Shown here: piece after piece, positions 5,596-12,022 of the stretch | Position numbering within the stretch: position 1 is the first letter of the stretch | Layout: each line of letters starts with the position of its first letter | Origin: a virus | Virus record (IMG/VR): IMGVR_UViG_3300027788_000008 | Span: 1-64,000 of that record | Direction: 5' to 3' (one strand) | DNA length: 64,000 nucleotides | Program-made: the position numbers and the translations under genes | Notes under the pieces: model-generated | Told to the model about the DNA's origin: nothing | Seen by the model: only the letters and a program-made list of their open reading frames with translations | The model's database searches: none

Positions 5596-6315
5596 ATGAA
5601 AACAACTTTAATCTGTGGGGCAGTCACTGCCGCATTATTCGCTGGCAATGCTGCTGCCAATACATTCGTTGAAGACCTGTCACTAGACGGTTCTCTTGCT
5701 GTGACATCCGACTATCGCTTCCGTGGTATCAGTCAGTCCAACGAAGATGTTGCGCTACAAGGTTCTATCAACCTTAATCACACATCAGGTTTTCATGCTG
5801 GTGTTTGGGGTTCTTCAATCGACTTCAATTCTGTCGGTAACGATGAAGCAACCCTTGAACTAGACTACACTGCTGGATATACATTTTCAGTATCCGATGT
5901 TGCGGTTGATGTAGGTTACATCTACTACACCTATCCTAATGACGGTAGCAACGACAACAACGACTACGGTGAAGTTTACGCTGCTGCTGATTGGAAAGGC
6001 GTTGAAGTCGGTGTTAACTGGACTGATGACGGTTATGCTAAAAGCGGTAAGGCGACATATGTCTTTGCTGGATACAGTCACCAATTTGGTATCGTAACTG
6101 TTGGCGCACAAGTAGGTGAAACTTTCTTGGACACTGCTACCTTTGCTAATGGTGATGACAAGTATTTCAACTTTGAAGTATCTGGTGCGGTAACTTTACT
6201 AGAAAAGTTAGATGTAGAAGTCGCATATGTTGGAACCGACTTGAGCAAGAATGATATCGGTGGACTTGACTGGGCAGAAAATGCTGTGGTCGCTACTGTT
6301 ACTCTTAATCTCTAA
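5596..6315 (+). CDS. TorF/TIGR02001-like outer membrane beta-barrel protein with signal peptide
   Basis: Signal peptide ending AAA; SDYRFRGISQS, GFHAGVWGS, ELDYTAGY and DVGYIYYTYP motifs. Confidence 0.9.
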   Translation: MKTTLICGAVTAALFAGNAAANTFVEDLSLDGSLAVTSDYRFRGISQSNEDVALQGSINLNHTSGFHAGVWGSSIDFNSVGNDEATLELDYTAGYTFSVSDVAVDVGYIYYTYPNDGSNDNNDYGEVYAAADWKGVEVGVNWTDDGYAKSGKATYVFAGYSHQFGIVTVGAQVGETFLDTATFANGDDKYFNFEVSGAVTLLEKLDVEVAYVGTDLSKNDIGGLDWAENAVVATVTLNL

Positions 6316-6400: not shown

Positions 6401-7000
6401 ATGAACGAAACCTTATTCAAAGTATACAAAGACCAACTGGAAGCAGAAGGACTGGACGCCAACACAAAGGCGTCTCGCGATTGGTTCTTTGATAAGATGA
6501 ACGAGATCGGCAACGTAAATGTTGACCGAAATGCGATACGAAGTCGGTTACCAGTTGCGGCAAACTATTTCATTGGAAGGATGTACATGTTCTTATACAA
6601 ACCAGAGAATAGGTTAACATTAAAATATTATGACAGATTCCCCCTTGTGATAATGTTGGAACACTATAAAGAAGGATTTCTTGGATTGAACCTTCACTAC
6701 CTTCCTATCGACCTGCGCCAAAGATTGTACTACAACCTCATCCCCCGTGCAACAACAGAGAAGTTCAATAATAGGACGAGACTCAAGATTAACTATCAGT
6801 ATCTGCTAGGGAAGACGTTCTTGCGCGGACACAAACCCTGTGTGAAGAGGTATCTGTACTCCGGCATAATCGGCAAGGTTGCGAATGTACCTGCTAATGA
6901 ATGGGAAGTAGCGGTCCATCTACCAACAGCATACTTTAAGAAAGCAACTGCAAGCAAAGTACATAAAGAGAGTAGGATGTCGGCAAGGAAAATAAAATGA
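6401..7000 (+). CDS. 2: DNA end protector gp2
   Basis: GRMYMFLY, YYDRFPL, GLNLHYLP, PCVKRYL, EWEVAVHLP. Confidence 0.9.
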   Translation: MNETLFKVYKDQLEAEGLDANTKASRDWFFDKMNEIGNVNVDRNAIRSRLPVAANYFIGRMYMFLYKPENRLTLKYYDRFPLVIMLEHYKEGFLGLNLHYLPIDLRQRLYYNLIPRATTEKFNNRTRLKINYQYLLGKTFLRGHKPCVKRYLYSGIIGKVANVPANEWEVAVHLPTAYFKKATASKVHKESRMSARKIK

Positions 7001-7566
7001 GCACATTTAGCACAGACACGTTGCGCAGCACCATTATAAAACAAAATGGGTTGGCTTCTAACAACCGATATCGGATTGTACTTCCAAGACTCTCGGGTAA
7101 TATAAAGGCAGACGGAAATGTAATCAACAAAGAACCCGCTGACAGGGAAGATCTGGGAACACTTTGTACCAGTGCTAGATTGCCTGGAAAGGTTCTGTCT
7201 GTTGTAGATAGAAACATTGGATTAGAACAGATCAAGATCGCCAATGGTTTTACTTTCAGTGACGCGAACCTGTCATTTTACCTGACCAACGAATACTCTG
7301 CGAGAAAATACTTCCAAGAATGGATGGATTGTGTGGTCTCGCCTAAACCGCCATTCACAGCAGGTTTTCATAGCAACTATGCGAAGAGAATTACAATTGA
7401 ACAGATGGACAGGGATAGCAAAGTCATCTATACAGTTGAATTGATCAAAGCATACCCGACATCCATATCGGAGATAGACCTAAATAATCAAGCACAGACC
7501 GCTGCATTAGAGTTGACCGTGTCTCTGACATATTCAAATTACATCATAAAAGATAACACCAATTGA
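6997..7566 (+). CDS. Baseplate tail-tube initiator (gp54-like)
   Basis: Tube-fold pattern LPGK...FQEWM...AYPTSI; synteny. Confidence 0.7.
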   Translation: MSTFSTDTLRSTIIKQNGLASNNRYRIVLPRLSGNIKADGNVINKEPADREDLGTLCTSARLPGKVLSVVDRNIGLEQIKIANGFTFSDANLSFYLTNEYSARKYFQEWMDCVVSPKPPFTAGFHSNYAKRITIEQMDRDSKVIYTVELIKAYPTSISEIDLNNQAQTAALELTVSLTYSNYIIKDNTN

Positions 7567-7579
7567 ACCGGAGTTTATA

Positions 7580-8302
7580 ATGGCATTACCGAAGATTAAC
7601 GAAACGCTGAATTTTAATATGACAATCCCGTCGACGGGAAATAAAATTAAGTACCGACCATACCTGGTCAAAGAAGAAAGGATACTTCTGCAAGCATTCG
7701 AGTCGAAGGATATGCAGATGTGTTTAGTTGCAATGTCTGACACGTTGACGGCATGCATAGACCCAAGGGAAAATATAGAAGTAGATAAACTCTCTACATT
7801 TGACATAGAGTATATGTTCACTCAACTGCGCGCGAAGTCTGTGGGGGAAACCTCTACGATATTGATTTCTTGTTCTGTTGATGACTGCACCGAAAAAAAT
7901 GAATATGTTATCAACCTTGATGATTTGAAGGTGGAAGTGTCGAAAGGAAGCAATGTTATCGTTATAACACCAGAGATATCCGTTGAGATGGCATACCCCA
8001 CGTATGCGACTATGATTAAAGAAGGCACCAGAGATACGAATAAGGAAAGTCCTTCTAATCCAGTTCAGATTATGGCAGGATGCATTGCTGCTGTTCTGAC
8101 CAGAGAAGAGAGAATCGAAGCAGCAGATGAAACAATAGAAAGCATGGAAGAGTTTGTCGGGAATATGACAGCAAATCAGTTGCAACAAATGGCAGCGTTT
8201 TTAGAAAATATGCCTGCATTGAAACATAATGCAGAATTCGAATGTACTAAATGCGAAAAGAAAAACAGCGTAGAGTTGAAAGGGTTATCTGATTTTTTCT
8301 AA
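7580..8302 (+). CDS. 26: Baseplate hub assembly protein gp26-like
   Basis: MALPK, YRPYLVKEE, FDIEYMFTQLRAKSVGE, CxxC, ends GLSDFF. Confidence 0.9.
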   Translation: MALPKINETLNFNMTIPSTGNKIKYRPYLVKEERILLQAFESKDMQMCLVAMSDTLTACIDPRENIEVDKLSTFDIEYMFTQLRAKSVGETSTILISCSVDDCTEKNEYVINLDDLKVEVSKGSNVIVITPEISVEMAYPTYATMIKEGTRDTNKESPSNPVQIMAGCIAAVLTREERIEAADETIESMEEFVGNMTANQLQQMAAFLENMPALKHNAEFECTKCEKKNSVELKGLSDFF

Positions 8303-8490
8303 TATCCCTGTCACACGATAACCTTGTAAACCATTACAAGACCAATTTCGCTTTGATGCAACACCATAATTATAGTTTGACGGAGTTGGATAATATGTTA
8401 CCGTGGGAGAGGGCAATCTACATTATGCTTCTTATTCAGTACATAAAAGAGGAAAACGAAAAAATGGAAGCAAGAAAGGCGGCACGATAA
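8293..8490 (+). CDS. 51: gp51-like hub assembly ORF in the -1 frame of gp26 (not in ORF track)
   Basis: SHDNLVNHYKTNFALMQHHNYSLTELDNMLPWERAIYIMLL; frame opens right after TGA at 8290-8292; first ATG only at 8356. Confidence 0.8.
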   Translation, partial: FFLISLSHDNLVNHYKTNFALMQHHNYSLTELDNMLPWERAIYIMLLIQYIKEENEKMEARKAAR

Positions 8491-10721
8491 TGGCAGAGAG
8501 TATACTGGAAGGCGTATCAAAGCAGTTGGTTATATTCAATAACAACTTACCCAACTTGATGGACGCGCAATTCGAGACTATCGAAGGCACGTTTGAGAGT
8601 CTTGCGGAAGTCAACGGCAACGCGATGGATCTCATGGCACAGACCCTCCTGCGTATTGAAATGATCATGCTCGACTTCCTAAAGGTCATTCCCGCTACGG
8701 TTGAAGAAGGGTTTGACAGATCCATCGCATTAGATCTGTTCTTAGAAAAAAAGAGAAGTCGTGAGGAAGACCCTGTCAATAAGAAACCCAAAAAAAAGGG
8801 GAATAAATTCATATCTGCATTCAACGAGGGGAAAGCAGAGGTAGAAAAAGAAGGGTTTGTGGAAGATATTATCGATAAATGGTTGCCACTCACTGCCCTG
8901 ATGGCATCAGCTGGCACAGCGTTTGCCGTGTTAAGCACTGTGATAGTCCCTCTTCTCCCCGTGATCTTGGGAGTTGCTGCTGCAATTGGCGCATTGGTAT
9001 ATGTCTTCATGACAGCACTCGATTATTTCAACAGCAACGAAGGTTCCCTTGGTGATAAACTTCTCGCTGGAATTGAAGGAATTTTTCAGGCCATATTGAG
9101 AATAGTAACGTTGCCTATCGATCTGCTTGTGGGAGCGATAACCACAATTCTTTCCACAATTGCCACGTGGATACTTGGCGAAGGAAATTTTATCAGTAAA
9201 TTTCTAGACGACTTTTCAATATTTGATATCCTTTCTGGGGTCTTAAGCGATGTCTTCGCATTCATCGGCGACATAGTTGATTTTTTCGTCGACGTTGGCA
9301 AGACGATAGGTGGTTATATCTCCAAAGTCTGGGATTCTTTCGAACCTGCACGGAAAGGCATGGCAGCAATGTTCGCCGGAATCGGTAAGTTCATAGATTG
9401 GATTATATCTATCGGAAAAATCGCAGCAAAGTTCTTGGGTCTATCACTTCCCGAAGGTGATGACGAAGAACAAGGAGAATATGTTTCACCGATAGAATTG
9501 TCCCGAGGGCAACAAAATGATGCTGAAAGATCAGCGAAAGACTCTGGTCTTTATGAAAAGAATACAATCGGTCTCACAGGCAATGTTGAATCAGTGGTCG
9601 ATGAGTCGATGCTTGGGAGTGCCACAGCAGAACAACTACAGGCAATAGTCAACGACGGCGACATCTCTGACATGCAGATGGAATTGGTTAAAGACATGTT
9701 GGCGTTAAAGACAGGAACCACCCGCACTGACGTCACCACCACCACGACCTACCTGCCATCCACTCTCACTGGCACACGCTATAGCGAGGACGAAGAGGCG
9801 TCTTCTGCGGGTGATTTGGGTAATGCAATAAAATCCGTCAGACCCGCAATGGACGCAGGAGAAGCAGCAGATGCAGAAGTGAAGGCAGCAGCATCAAAGA
9901 AAAAACGAGATGAATTTTTGGCATCAGTCCCACCCGAAGAACTCGCAGCGATCAAAGCAGAGATGGGTCTCGGTACAAGTGATGTCGAAGTTGTCGAAAC
10001 TGACCAACACAAATTGAATCAGTTTGCTGCGCAAAACCGCAAGTCGCATCGCAGGGCAAGAGAGGCTGAGGTTTACTCGCAGAAAGAACTTACCAGAATG
10101 GCACATGAACAGCAAGCAAATGTTAGTCCAGAAGTGGCCGCTGCTGCGGCACGGCAAGCAGCTTACAAAGCGAGCGGTGGAGCACCGGAGACGGGGTCTC
10201 CCATCAGCATGCTGTCCCCCAACGCGGAAGGGGAGGCGAACATCAAGTCCATGATGAACAATAATGTTACGCCACCCACTGAAGAAGAATATGCCGACAT
10301 GCGATCAAAGGTAATGTCTCCTAAAAATTATGATTTGTCTACGATCACTGCCCCCGTCGATGCCATAAATACAAGACCAGGATACCAAGAAAAACTGGCC
10401 AGCGAACGTCTGCGGAAGAAAGGCACAGTTGCTACTGCTATGACTCGTTCACTTCCACTGCCCGCAGACATGTATCAAGATTATCAAGTTAAACCTGCAA
10501 TGGCACCGCTCTCTAGTGCGGGAGTATCAACAGACCTCGGTGCCCAGTCAGTTAAGTTGAATGATAACAAGTCCGCTGTCGCTGCTACACAATCTGCTTC
10601 GAACACAGTGGTGAGTGCTCCATCTACAACAAACGTTGAGAACAAAACGATAAATTCTGGTCCAATACCATCTGCTATGGACAGGAGTGACCGTACCCAC
10701 AGGAGAAAGGGCACTACCTAA
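8490..10721 (+). CDS. Probable tape measure protein (gp29-like)
   Basis: TAATG overlap start; long helical/hydrophobic A-G-I-rich region; follows gp26/gp51. Confidence 0.6.
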   Translation: MAESILEGVSKQLVIFNNNLPNLMDAQFETIEGTFESLAEVNGNAMDLMAQTLLRIEMIMLDFLKVIPATVEEGFDRSIALDLFLEKKRSREEDPVNKKPKKKGNKFISAFNEGKAEVEKEGFVEDIIDKWLPLTALMASAGTAFAVLSTVIVPLLPVILGVAAAIGALVYVFMTALDYFNSNEGSLGDKLLAGIEGIFQAILRIVTLPIDLLVGAITTILSTIATWILGEGNFISKFLDDFSIFDILSGVLSDVFAFIGDIVDFFVDVGKTIGGYISKVWDSFEPARKGMAAMFAGIGKFIDWIISIGKIAAKFLGLSLPEGDDEEQGEYVSPIELSRGQQNDAERSAKDSGLYEKNTIGLTGNVESVVDESMLGSATAEQLQAIVNDGDISDMQMELVKDMLALKTGTTRTDVTTTTTYLPSTLTGTRYSEDEEASSAGDLGNAIKSVRPAMDAGEAADAEVKAAASKKKRDEFLASVPPEELAAIKAEMGLGTSDVEVVETDQHKLNQFAAQNRKSHRRAREAEVYSQKELTRMAHEQQANVSPEVAAAAARQAAYKASGGAPETGSPISMLSPNAEGEANIKSMMNNNVTPPTEEEYADMRSKVMSPKNYDLSTITAPVDAINTRPGYQEKLASERLRKKGTVATAMTRSLPLPADMYQDYQVKPAMAPLSSAGVSTDLGAQSVKLNDNKSAVAATQSASNTVVSAPSTTNVENKTINSGPIPSAMDRSDRTHRRKGTT

Positions 10722-11223
10722 TCTTAGGTTTCTTGCGATAGGGTGCCATTGGTTTTATTTTCTTAATGGTTCCTGGAGTTTTCTTGAGTATTCCCATTTC
10801 GGTCAACTCCACTTCTGTCCAAATATCAAAACCATAACCATTCTCTTTGGCAATTTTCTCTGCTGCTTCCCACTTATTGCGGTTCTTGATATAAGCGAAT
10901 GCCTCGTTGAGTCCCCTCTTTGATCGAGGGTTCTTTGATTTTGGTGGTTCTGTTTGCCTTTTGGGTTTTACTTCGACGAGTAGTATGGTTCCGTTTTTGA
11001 ACTTAATCCAGAAGTCCATGTGATAGTTGTGGTACTTCTTATCAACCTCATAGAAGTATCTTATTATAAAGTCTTCACTGTTCCACTCTGCAACGCCAGC
11101 GTTCCCGTCGAGATATTTCATGACACTTCTTTCCCAACTGCTTCTGTACACAACGTTATGCTCATCACCCTTATACTTATTTGGGTGTTTGACTTTGTAT
11201 TTGCCTCGATAAGTCTTGTTCAT
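10714..11223 (-). CDS. 4: Head completion nuclease gp4
   Basis: YRGKY...KYKGD, YRSSWE, WNSE, LVEVKP, KWEAA. Confidence 0.92.
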   Translation of the reverse strand: MNKTYRGKYKVKHPNKYKGDEHNVVYRSSWERSVMKYLDGNAGVAEWNSEDFIIRYFYEVDKKYHNYHMDFWIKFKNGTILLVEVKPKRQTEPPKSKNPRSKRGLNEAFAYIKNRNKWEAAEKIAKENGYGFDIWTEVELTEMGILKKTPGTIKKIKPMAPYRKKPKIR

Positions 11224-11227
11224 GGTG

Positions 11228-11259
11228 TATAAATAAGTGGAAAGATAATAATATTTATA
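11228..11259. promoter_or_regulatory. Face-to-face late promoter pair for gp48 (+) and gp4 (-)
   Basis: TATAAATA at 11228 and TATTTATA at 11252. Confidence 0.8.
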
Positions 11260-11269
11260 GGGATACAAA

Positions 11270-12022
11270 ATGGCAGAGATAACCTTCCCAGAAGATATCG
11301 AAACATATAAAGGCCAGGTACGGTTCACTTTGGTGGATAATGAGGATCAAGTTATTACAGGCAGACAAGTCAACCTGTTCTTGCCTACGGGTTTGCAGTA
11401 TTCTGATAAAGTAGAGTACGAGAATGCTGATCTTGGCGGAGTCGGCGCAGTAATGGCAGGCGGCGCAGGAAATACAATGGGTGGTGCTCCTTCTGAGGCA
11501 ATGGGCAGCGAAGATGTACGAAAGAGTATTATGGCATCCATCGCATCAAAACTTGGAGATACTACTGGACAGATTGGCCGCGCAAGAACAAAGACCGCAC
11601 CCAACCCAAACACACGTGCCTTATTTAAACAGGTTCATCTCCGCTCTTTTTCATTCCAATTCAAACTTATACCAACCACGGAAACAGAAGCAAACAAAAT
11701 CACTAATATAGTTAAACTGTTTAGAACAGAGTTGTACCCCGATGAGATACCTTATACCGTTCCAGTGACGGGATCCATCATAAGTGTCGGTTATAATTTT
11801 CCGAATAGGTTTAAGATAGAGCAGTTTTATGATAACCGTTTAAATATACACGCACAGAAGATCAAACCAGCATACCTTGATTCTTTCACCACAAACTATA
11901 ATACAACGACCCAAGCATACTTTCAGGGCGAGAACGGCGCATATTTTTCTGAAGTTGATATTGCCATGACCTTTACTGAGTCTAAGACTCTTTCTAGAAT
12001 AAGTATAGGAGAGGGATTCTAA
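11270..12022 (+). CDS. 48: Baseplate tail tube cap gp48
   Basis: NPNTRALF...RSFSFQFKLIP...EA...FTE. Confidence 0.8.
   Translation: MAEITFPEDIETYKGQVRFTLVDNEDQVITGRQVNLFLPTGLQYSDKVEYENADLGGVGAVMAGGAGNTMGGAPSEAMGSEDVRKSIMASIASKLGDTTGQIGRARTKTAPNPNTRALFKQVHLRSFSFQFKLIPTTETEANKITNIVKLFRTELYPDEIPYTVPVTGSIISVGYNFPNRFKIEQFYDNRLNIHAQKIKPAYLDSFTTNYNTTTQAYFQGENGAYFSEVDIAMTFTESKTLSRISIGEGF

Follow-up and report, generated by a model that had tools for sequence, protein, structure and literature searches.

The locus analysed here raises the question of whether a phage gene resembling T4 gene 26, and the short open frame that follows it in another phase, are two genes or a single tail-assembly gene read in two ways. 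The window is a 64,000-nt stretch of DNA (IMG/VR record IMGVR_UViG_3300027788_000008, positions 1 to 64,000), and all features given below lie on its + strand. The gp26-like gene (7580..8302, TAA included) encodes in the 0 frame a 240-aa protein, hereafter the short form, assigned as a tail assembly/hub chaperone by profile matches to PF12322 T4_baseplate (4.3e-53, residues 11-240) and phrog_150 (5.5e-53). Directly upstream lies a 189-aa tail-tube-like gene (6997..7566; PF06841 Phage_T4_gp19, 1.5e-6; phrog_45 tail tube, 2.7e-37). The gp26-like frame ends with GAT (8291) TTT TTC TAA (8300-8302), which places an X_XXY_YYZ heptamer, T_TTT_TTC (8293..8299), next to the stop codon as the proposed site of a tandem -1 slip. 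A TGA read from the sequence at 8290..8292 closes the -1 frame just 5' of the heptamer and thereby excludes an upstream start for what follows, a 'gp51-like' extension of 63 codons plus TAA (8299..8490) that would be read only after a slip. This extension matches phrog_634 'baseplate hub assembly catalyst' (7.4e-28) and, within phrog_150, columns 231-278 at the C-terminal end. Its stop codon (TAA, 8488-8490) overlaps the ATG (8490-8492) of the next gene as TAATG. That gene (8490..10721, 743 aa) is named tape-measure-like as a lead, on weak matches to phrog_1272 tape measure (6.6e-4) and by the presence of PF25671 T4_Tape_measure on the nearest ESM Atlas clusters of its product (0.95 and 0.94). 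The positions given in the first-pass annotation for the heptamer, the opening of the -1 frame after TGA, the first ATG of that frame (8356) and the tape-measure overlap were all verified in the sequence. The order tail tube, chaperone, tape measure recurs in KVP40, phiM7 and ORM_20, each with the tail-tube gene at the same position.

Judged from sequence, the gp26-like gene is very probably a tail-assembly (tape-measure/hub) chaperone gene that gives two products by a -1 slip on T_TTT_TTC. Most ribosomes would end at TAA 8300-8302 and release the 240-aa short form. A minority would slip back by one base while tRNA-Phe molecules sit on TTT-TTC of the heptamer; the slipped tRNAs would re-pair on TTT-TTT, and reading would resume with CTA at 8299. 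The predicted product is a long form of 303 aa (240 + 63) carrying a 63-residue helical tail, with the junction ...GLSDFF|LISLSHDNLVNHYK and the predicted junction peptide GLSDFFLISLSHDNLVNHYK, of the GLSDFF-LISLSH type. The short form would be the counterpart of T4 gp26 and the long form that of gp51, and the logic of the pair would be that of lambda G/GT. We infer the occurrence, ribosomal nature and efficiency of the slip, together with the binding partners of each form; by analogy with lambda, the short form may bind the tape measure and the tail of the long form may recruit tube or hub proteins.

The first-pass annotation had proposed to test marine T4-like genomes for conservation of the heptamer and of the -1 phase, and both are conserved. 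Related IMG/VR loci were gathered with a 9-sequence alignment as query, and the junctions compared number 99, of which 88 are non-redundant: 11 come from close relatives, 80 from diverse IMG/VR loci and 8 from cultured phages, namely KVP40, phiM7, ORM_20, LPCS28 and four cyanophages. The downstream frame is in -1 phase in all 99. TTTTTT stands in the same phase in 88/88 non-redundant junctions, where codon usage would predict about 0.45 per sequence, and each of the six Ts is invariant (2.0 bits each). The seventh base is C in 46 junctions, T in 29 and A in 13, and the codon before the heptamer is limited to AGT, GAT, AAT or TCT. The 0-frame residues around the heptamer are variable (S/D/N before it, F or L in the A site); since these amino acids vary around invariant Ts, the constraint acts on the nucleotides. 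A 0-frame stop follows within 0-1 codons of the heptamer in 78 of the 80 diverse loci.

A frame break at a homopolymer could also be a sequencing or assembly indel, or a sign of decay, the true gene being an in-frame fusion or a pseudogene. Errors do gather in homopolymers, and a small number of metagenomic proteins (P0132, P0023) are indeed in-frame fusions; both points count in favour of this reading. Against it, the same break recurs at 88 non-redundant loci, cultured phages with finished genomes show it too, and both frames are under purifying selection across the homologous junctions. At the window locus itself, a metagenome contig from an independent run (X4, 744 nt, covering 7600-8343) is identical to the window without any indel, which excludes an assembly error as the cause of the frame break. 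Another contig, divergent in sequence, also crosses the junction without gaps. An indel or pseudogene is thus effectively refuted. RNA-library contigs cover 7718-8029 and 8358-8616, and the slip site falls between them.

The same homopolymer could also act during transcription, with RNA polymerase adding or dropping a U on the T-run (6-8 Ts) so that edited mRNAs encode the in-frame fusion. We consider this highly improbable, because the run begins at codon position 3 in 88/88 junctions and is never extended 5', a fixed phase that matters for tandem tRNA re-pairing and not for polymerase slippage, and because the seventh base is never G. Six Ts are, moreover, short for efficient bacterial transcriptional slippage.

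A ribosomal -1 slip also fits the way in which the extension appears to begin. In the window, the -1 frame reaches its first ATG only at 8356 (a TTG stands at 8353), with 21 codons of the conserved peptide already behind it and no SD ahead of it. Across the 80 diverse loci, the -1 frame is open for only 0-15 codons upstream of the heptamer, closure of the TGA type immediately 5' of the heptamer recurs in 11, and the first -1-frame ATG is usually found at codon +20/21, where it encodes a conserved internal Met. The -1-frame coding signature is nevertheless present from the heptamer to this Met, with information by codon position of 1.13/1.41/0.63 upstream of the first Met, that is, with third-position relaxation. 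No conserved independent start for the extension was found across the homologous junctions examined, in agreement with the first-pass annotation. The many database records that show a separate small 'gp51' after gene 26 would instead have the tail made as its own protein, by independent initiation or by coupled termination-reinitiation downstream of the gp26 stop, with no fusion. This is very unlikely: in the window the frame is closed by TGA before the heptamer and its only ATG is internal to the conserved peptide, and neither the third-position relaxation upstream of the conserved Met nor the invariant in-phase TTTTTT is accounted for by it. The annotations themselves disagree, with gene-caller starts for the extension scattered and annotated products of no length at all (omitted), 31 aa, 38 aa, 53 aa and 55 aa, so that, as the first-pass annotation had proposed, the separate small gp51 genes look like gene-caller artefacts. 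KVP40 (TAATG) and phiM7 (GTGATG) have an ATG that overlaps the gp26 stop, which speaks for the two-protein reading there, and in these phages a small protein of its own could arise in addition through coupled re-initiation.

The comparison with T4 bears on both the fusion and the start. T4 gp26 (208 aa) and gp51 (249 aa) are hub assembly chaperones (Leiman et al. 2010, PMC3004832, Table 2), and both carry the PF12322 domain (8.8e-64 for gp26, 3.9e-52 for gp51). The first-pass annotation had asked whether T4 gp51 aligns across both parts of the locus, and it does: PF12322 spans residues 1-201, and the tail, residues 200-249, aligns to the -1 peptide of the window (BLASTP, 8e-6), which also matches the C-terminus of Aes012 gp51 (tblastn). 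In T4 and Aes012, a single ORF encodes gp51 as PF12322 followed by the homologous tail, and gp26 is PF12322 alone. The two parts are also found joined in frame in a natural fusion, P0092, which likewise favours the two-product reading. The short form of the window aligns with gp26 as far as its ...GL.EFF end (the T4-type ..GLKEFF.. resembling ..GLSDFF of the window), and the predicted long form is colinear with gp51. That T4 gp51 has the tail covalently on the PF12322 domain counts further against a separate small protein, as does the loss of the heptamer in phages with two genes, which that reading leaves unexplained: the heptamer is absent in 7/7 two-gene T4-type phages, T4 having GAG TTC TTT. 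Among complete genomes, one PF12322 gene is present in P-HM2, KVP40, phiM7 and LPCS28, and two are present in T4. The window's record does not show the T4 arrangement of short and long forms from two separate genes; it holds one PF12322 gene, and because the record is only ~42% complete, a second copy may lie elsewhere in the phage. In a tree of these proteins, a branch with 99/99 support splits the frameshift-type genes from T4-type gp26 and the N-terminal part of gp51. T4 differs from the window in that gp26 and gp51 come from two divergently transcribed genes without a slippery heptamer, and in that gene 51 is separated from the tape measure gene 29 by genes 27 and 28, whereas the chaperone gene of the window abuts the tape-measure-like gene.

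Structural prediction points in the same direction with moderate strength. The AlphaFold model of the 240-aa short form has a pLDDT of 90.5, and when residues 1-95 were compared with 48,161 chains in an exhaustive VIA search, the top three were 3fgx (Z 8.6), YqbN (3klu, Z 6.7) and the HK97 TAC (2ob9, Z 6.7); p2 ORF12 (3d8l) gave Z 3.2 against the same domain. No significant PDB match for the chaperone was obtained by sequence search or by Foldseek. The modelled N-terminal domain therefore resembles HK97-type tail assembly chaperones at a moderate level of support, as the Z values are middling and Foldseek by itself was non-significant. The tail was modelled in the natural in-frame fusion P0092 in place of the 303-aa form of the window, and is predicted there as four helices.

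A conserved -1 frameshift in tail assembly chaperone genes was described for lambda gpG/gpGT (Xu, Hendrix & Duda 2004, Mol Cell 16:11, as cited in PMC12859696). The locus in the window shares with lambda G/GT and with P2 gpE/E+E' a place flanked by the tail tube and tape measure genes and a -1-frame extension without a start of its own. It differs from lambda G/GT in showing no detectable sequence similarity, in encoding a protein of about double the length, to which a Cys-rich beta domain is added, and in its heptamer (U_UUU_UUY/A in the family of the window, G_GGA_AAG in lambda). The proposal of the first-pass annotation that these T4-like phages use a G/GT-type recoding system is well supported by the invariant heptamer, by the tail tube and tape measure flanks and by the chaperone-like N-terminal domain.

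The first-pass annotation also took this reading to be new, which it apparently is not. Poly-T -1 signals in the TAC-N genes of T4-like phages were reported by Vladimirov, Gautam & Davidson (Virology 2022, 566:9-15), as that work is described in PMC10885494 and PMC12846349; according to the same two accounts, some T4-like phages, T4 included, have one short gene and one fused long gene. As far as these accounts describe it, the system is the same in family (PF12322) and in its short and long forms, and nothing essential differs. The production of two forms from one gene in T4-like phages thus appears to have been published in 2022, and the locus in the window appears to be a well-supported, unannotated instance in an uncultured marine phage. 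There is a small chance that the 2022 paper covers only part of the matter, for instance the chaperone role of gp26/gp51 and a handful of frameshift cases, and that three points have so far gone unreported: the strict, family-wide U_UUU_UUN signal with a 0-frame stop 0-1 codons on, its systematic loss in exactly those phages in which one ancient duplication took the place of recoding, and the faulty annotation of 'gp51' in about 600 phage records. If true, the three together would amount to a clean natural experiment on the replacement of a programmed frameshift by gene duplication.

The main value of the instance lies in a well-controlled confirmation and in an annotation fix. Long-tailed phages near-universally have a frameshift in their tail chaperone genes, and the instance fills what had looked like a 'T4 exception': the predicted frameshift is kept by most T4-like phages (marine, cyanobacterial, vibrio, rhizobial), and two paralogous genes have taken its place in T4 and its close relatives. 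In hundreds of phage genomes the tail either goes unannotated or appears as a tiny gene of its own named 'baseplate hub assembly catalyst'; to annotate a joined CDS with ribosomal slippage would be more accurate.

Candidate stimulators of the slip were examined on both sides of the heptamer. The -1 frameshift of E. coli dnaX is composed of an upstream SD, the heptamer A_AAA_AAG and a hairpin. A putative dnaX-type element, AAAGGG (8280..8285, Lys-Gly codons), lies upstream of the heptamer with 7 nt between the two. The first-pass annotation had noted this motif, and its position is conserved: the element stands at a fixed distance upstream of the heptamer (GG at -11/-10), and anti-SD binding at -4 kcal/mol or better occurs at this position in 82% of 88 junctions, compared with 3.5% in the background. 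In this anti-SD-complementary element at a fixed distance the family resembles dnaX. The motif also coincides with conserved [K/R/E]-Gly codons, of which [K/R]-Gly is kept in T4-type gene 26, where no shift is needed; because the same bases are codons that persist there, the conservation is confounded by protein constraint, and the motif is a possible stimulator. A hairpin downstream, CTTGTAA-ACCA-TTACAAG (8323..8340), was likewise confirmed as present in the window, where it begins 23 nt past the heptamer and belongs to the MFE fold. It occurs only in the window and close relatives and is not conserved family-wide (65.6% of cells paired, compared with 64.3% in shuffles; 45/500 shuffles reach the observed value), so that it is probably not a conserved stimulator, and in having no conserved downstream hairpin the family differs from dnaX. 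RNAalifold gave no consensus RNA structure on the 88 junctions, and pairing between an upstream AGG and a downstream CCU, inspected by eye, was inconsistent across junctions. The segments downstream of the heptamer fold somewhat better than shuffles, with a mean z of -1.2 compared with -0.16 upstream.

The gp26-like ORF of the window (240 aa, 7580..8302, + strand; PF12322 'T4_baseplate', E 4.3e-53; phrog_150 'baseplate hub') ends in GAT TTT TTC TAA, which places the slippery heptamer T_TTT_TTC (8293-8299, + strand) in X_XXY_YYZ phase beside the stop codon. As the first-pass annotation had described, the -1 frame opens immediately after a TGA (8290-8292, + strand) directly 5' of the heptamer and contains no ATG before 8356, which is residue 22 of P0001 (the 65-residue -1 frame translation) and lies within its conserved block. 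The frame remains open up to a TAA (8488-8490, + strand) whose final A also begins the ATG of a 743-aa ORF, and a slip is predicted to yield a product of 240 + 63 = 303 aa. P0001 matched phrog_634 'baseplate hub assembly catalyst' (7.4e-28), and one profile, phrog_150, covered both parts (columns 5-232 in the gp26 part, C-terminal columns 231-278 in P0001). An assembly error at the junction was excluded and the frame break taken as real DNA, because a 744-nt contig from an independent metagenome run was identical to the window across the junction, and another run supplied a divergent contig that spanned it without gaps.

Both the heptamer and the -1 phase, proposed from this one sequence, were conserved across junctions. 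All 11 close IMG/VR relatives (gp26 60-70% identical) had a stop immediately after GAT TTT TTY, and the same -1 peptide. Among 80 more diverse loci, retrieved by a tail-peptide profile search, TTTTTTN was found in the same phase in 80/80 (N = C in 40, T in 26, A in 14), with the 0-frame stop 0-1 codons past the heptamer in 78; the -1 frame was open for only 0-15 codons 5' of the heptamer (0 in 11), and its first ATG was mostly at codon +20/21, with an upstream ATG in two loci only. Cultured phages of several clades shared the arrangement: four cyanophages, Vibrio phage KVP40, Sinorhizobium phage phiM7, Ochrobactrum phage ORM_20 and Cronobacter phage LPCS28. By tblastn the tail was matched in 596 phage records, and nearly all alignments began at residue 1, which lies at the heptamer. 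At the DNA level, 8280-8464 (junction and tail-coding) was the only part of window 7000-9000 matching cyanophage genomes by blastn (70-80% identity); the gp26 body gave no such match.

In a non-redundant set of 88 junctions (mutual identity <=90%), each of the six Ts carried 2.0 bits, and TTTTTT was expected about 0.45 times per sequence from the codon usage of the same genes. The codon holding the first T was AGT, GAT, AAT or TCT only, never a C-ending synonym, and the A-site codon was TTC, TTT or TTA; the neighbouring amino acids therefore vary while the nucleotides are fixed. The TTTTTTA variant (0-frame Phe-Leu; heptamer at about 1501 in loci L027, L035, L041, L046, L055, L057, L061, L065, L075, L077, L089, L094 and L098), which is the heptamer of the HIV-1 gag-pol slip site, likewise places the constraint on nucleotides, not on a Phe-Phe dipeptide. 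Information per codon position of the -1 frame from the heptamer to the conserved Met was 1.13/1.41/0.63, a pattern that is a translation signature of this frame upstream of any ATG. The strict phase of the T-run speaks against transcriptional slippage there.

Separate initiation of a small tail protein is unlikely in the window, where no start lies ahead of residue 22, and would leave the invariant in-phase heptamer without explanation. Gene callers placed the start of the tail ORF at many different positions; a common 'MW...' extension of 14 codons arises as a side effect of 0-frame Lys-Cys-Gly codons and is shut in the window by the TGA. In addition to the heptamer, KVP40 (TAATG, L016 about 2001-2015) and phiM7 (GTGATG, L019 about 2001-2022) have a -1 frame ATG overlapping the gp26 stop, and there a free small tail protein, possibly made by translational coupling, may coexist with the predicted frameshift product.

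The first-pass annotation also named a hairpin and an SD-like element, considered here as possible stimulators of a slip. The hairpin is present in the window, starting 23 nt past the heptamer, but its pairing across the family was no better than in shuffles (65.6% vs 64.3%) and alifold gave no consensus structure at the junctions. Downstream segments gave slightly more stable folds than their shuffles (mean z -1.2, vs -0.16 for upstream segments); lineage-specific structures may therefore exist. The SD-like element, a candidate stimulator, is strongly position-specific (-4 kcal/mol or better in 82% of junctions vs 3.5% background), but it coincides with [K/R/E]-Gly codons that are retained in T4 gene 26.

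The gp51 of T4 and of Aeromonas phage Aes012 (249 aa) spans both parts, with PF12322 at residues 1-201 followed by the tail (T4 200-249 aligning with P0001 residues 2-53), and gp26 (208 or 201 aa) is PF12322 alone; by these domain contents, two paralogous genes encode the short and long forms in T4-type phages. In-frame gp51 of this kind was found in 1381 phage records. The heptamer was absent at equivalent places in 7/7 two-gene phages from five genera; in T4 gene 26 the site is GAG TTC TTT, and the T4 gp26 C-terminus ...RGLKEFFELL lines up with ...LKGLSDFF of the window. The gp26 end ...GL.EF[F/V/I/L] is kept without the heptamer in T4 (L102 5303-5929, - strand) and in further two-gene phages (L103-L107). 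Pseudotevenvirus and Slopekvirus carry gp54, gp51, gp26 and gp25 on one strand, in contrast to the divergent 26/51 pair of T4. Complete genomes of P-HM2, KVP40, phiM7 and LPCS28 held one PF12322 gene each and T4 two; one copy was found in the window's record, a linear IMG/VR fragment (75,278 bases) with a completeness of about 42%. In an unrooted maximum-likelihood tree of the PF12322 domain, one 99/99 branch split frameshift-type genes from T4-type gp26 and gp51N, the latter a clade with support 100/98, which fits a single duplication in the two-gene lineage. Frameshifting is, to our knowledge, near-universal in other long-tailed phages, and from this, the tree being unrooted, we infer a direction from frameshift to two genes. 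Three metagenomic proteins (P0092, P0132, P0023) fuse PF12322 and tail in frame outside the T4-type clade, the P0092 junction reading ..ISEWFVICLAH.. with no Phe-Phe; some of these may be homopolymer sequencing errors and others independent fixations of the frameshift.

The chaperone-like gene sits between tail-tube-like and tape-measure-like genes, the latter called from phrog_1272 (6.6e-4) and nearest Atlas clusters with PF25671 T4_Tape_measure. The short form gave a confident AlphaFold model (pLDDT 90.5), with which Foldseek returned nothing significant; an exhaustive structural search with residues 1-95 ranked 3fgx (Z 8.6), 3klu (B. subtilis YqbN, Z 6.7) and 2ob9 (HK97 tail assembly chaperone, Z 6.7) first to third, giving moderate model-based support for a chaperone fold. 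The tail of P0092 (a natural in-frame fusion, 270 aa; pLDDT 88.4) was modelled as four helices. In GenBank, gp26 and gp51 of some Acinetobacter phages are already named 'tape measure protein assembly chaperone', and both are listed as hub assembly chaperones, with gp51 called essential, by Leiman et al. 2010 (PMC3004832). The phenomenon appears to be published already, since two papers (PMC10885494, PMC12846349) cite Vladimirov, Gautam & Davidson (Virology 2022) for poly-T -1 frameshift signals in the TAC-N genes of T4-like phages and for a two-gene arrangement in T4; the window locus would be a sound new instance with a predicted slip.

Elsewhere in the window, a 239-aa ORF (5596-6315, + strand; PF09694 Gcw_chp, a bacterial protein of unknown function, 2.7e-31) with a signal-peptide-like N-terminus, lying between the gp32 and DNA-end-protector genes, looks like a host-like auxiliary gene. 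A 204-aa ORF (10714-11328, - strand) with a TnsA-like endonuclease N-terminal domain (PF08722, 7.7e-15), opposite in strand to the flanking tape-measure-like and gp48-like genes, probably represents the insertion of a mobile or homing endonuclease into the tail module. Sequence near-identical to the window was found in marine metagenomes from 17 studies (2017-2025), and the phage is therefore widespread in seawater.
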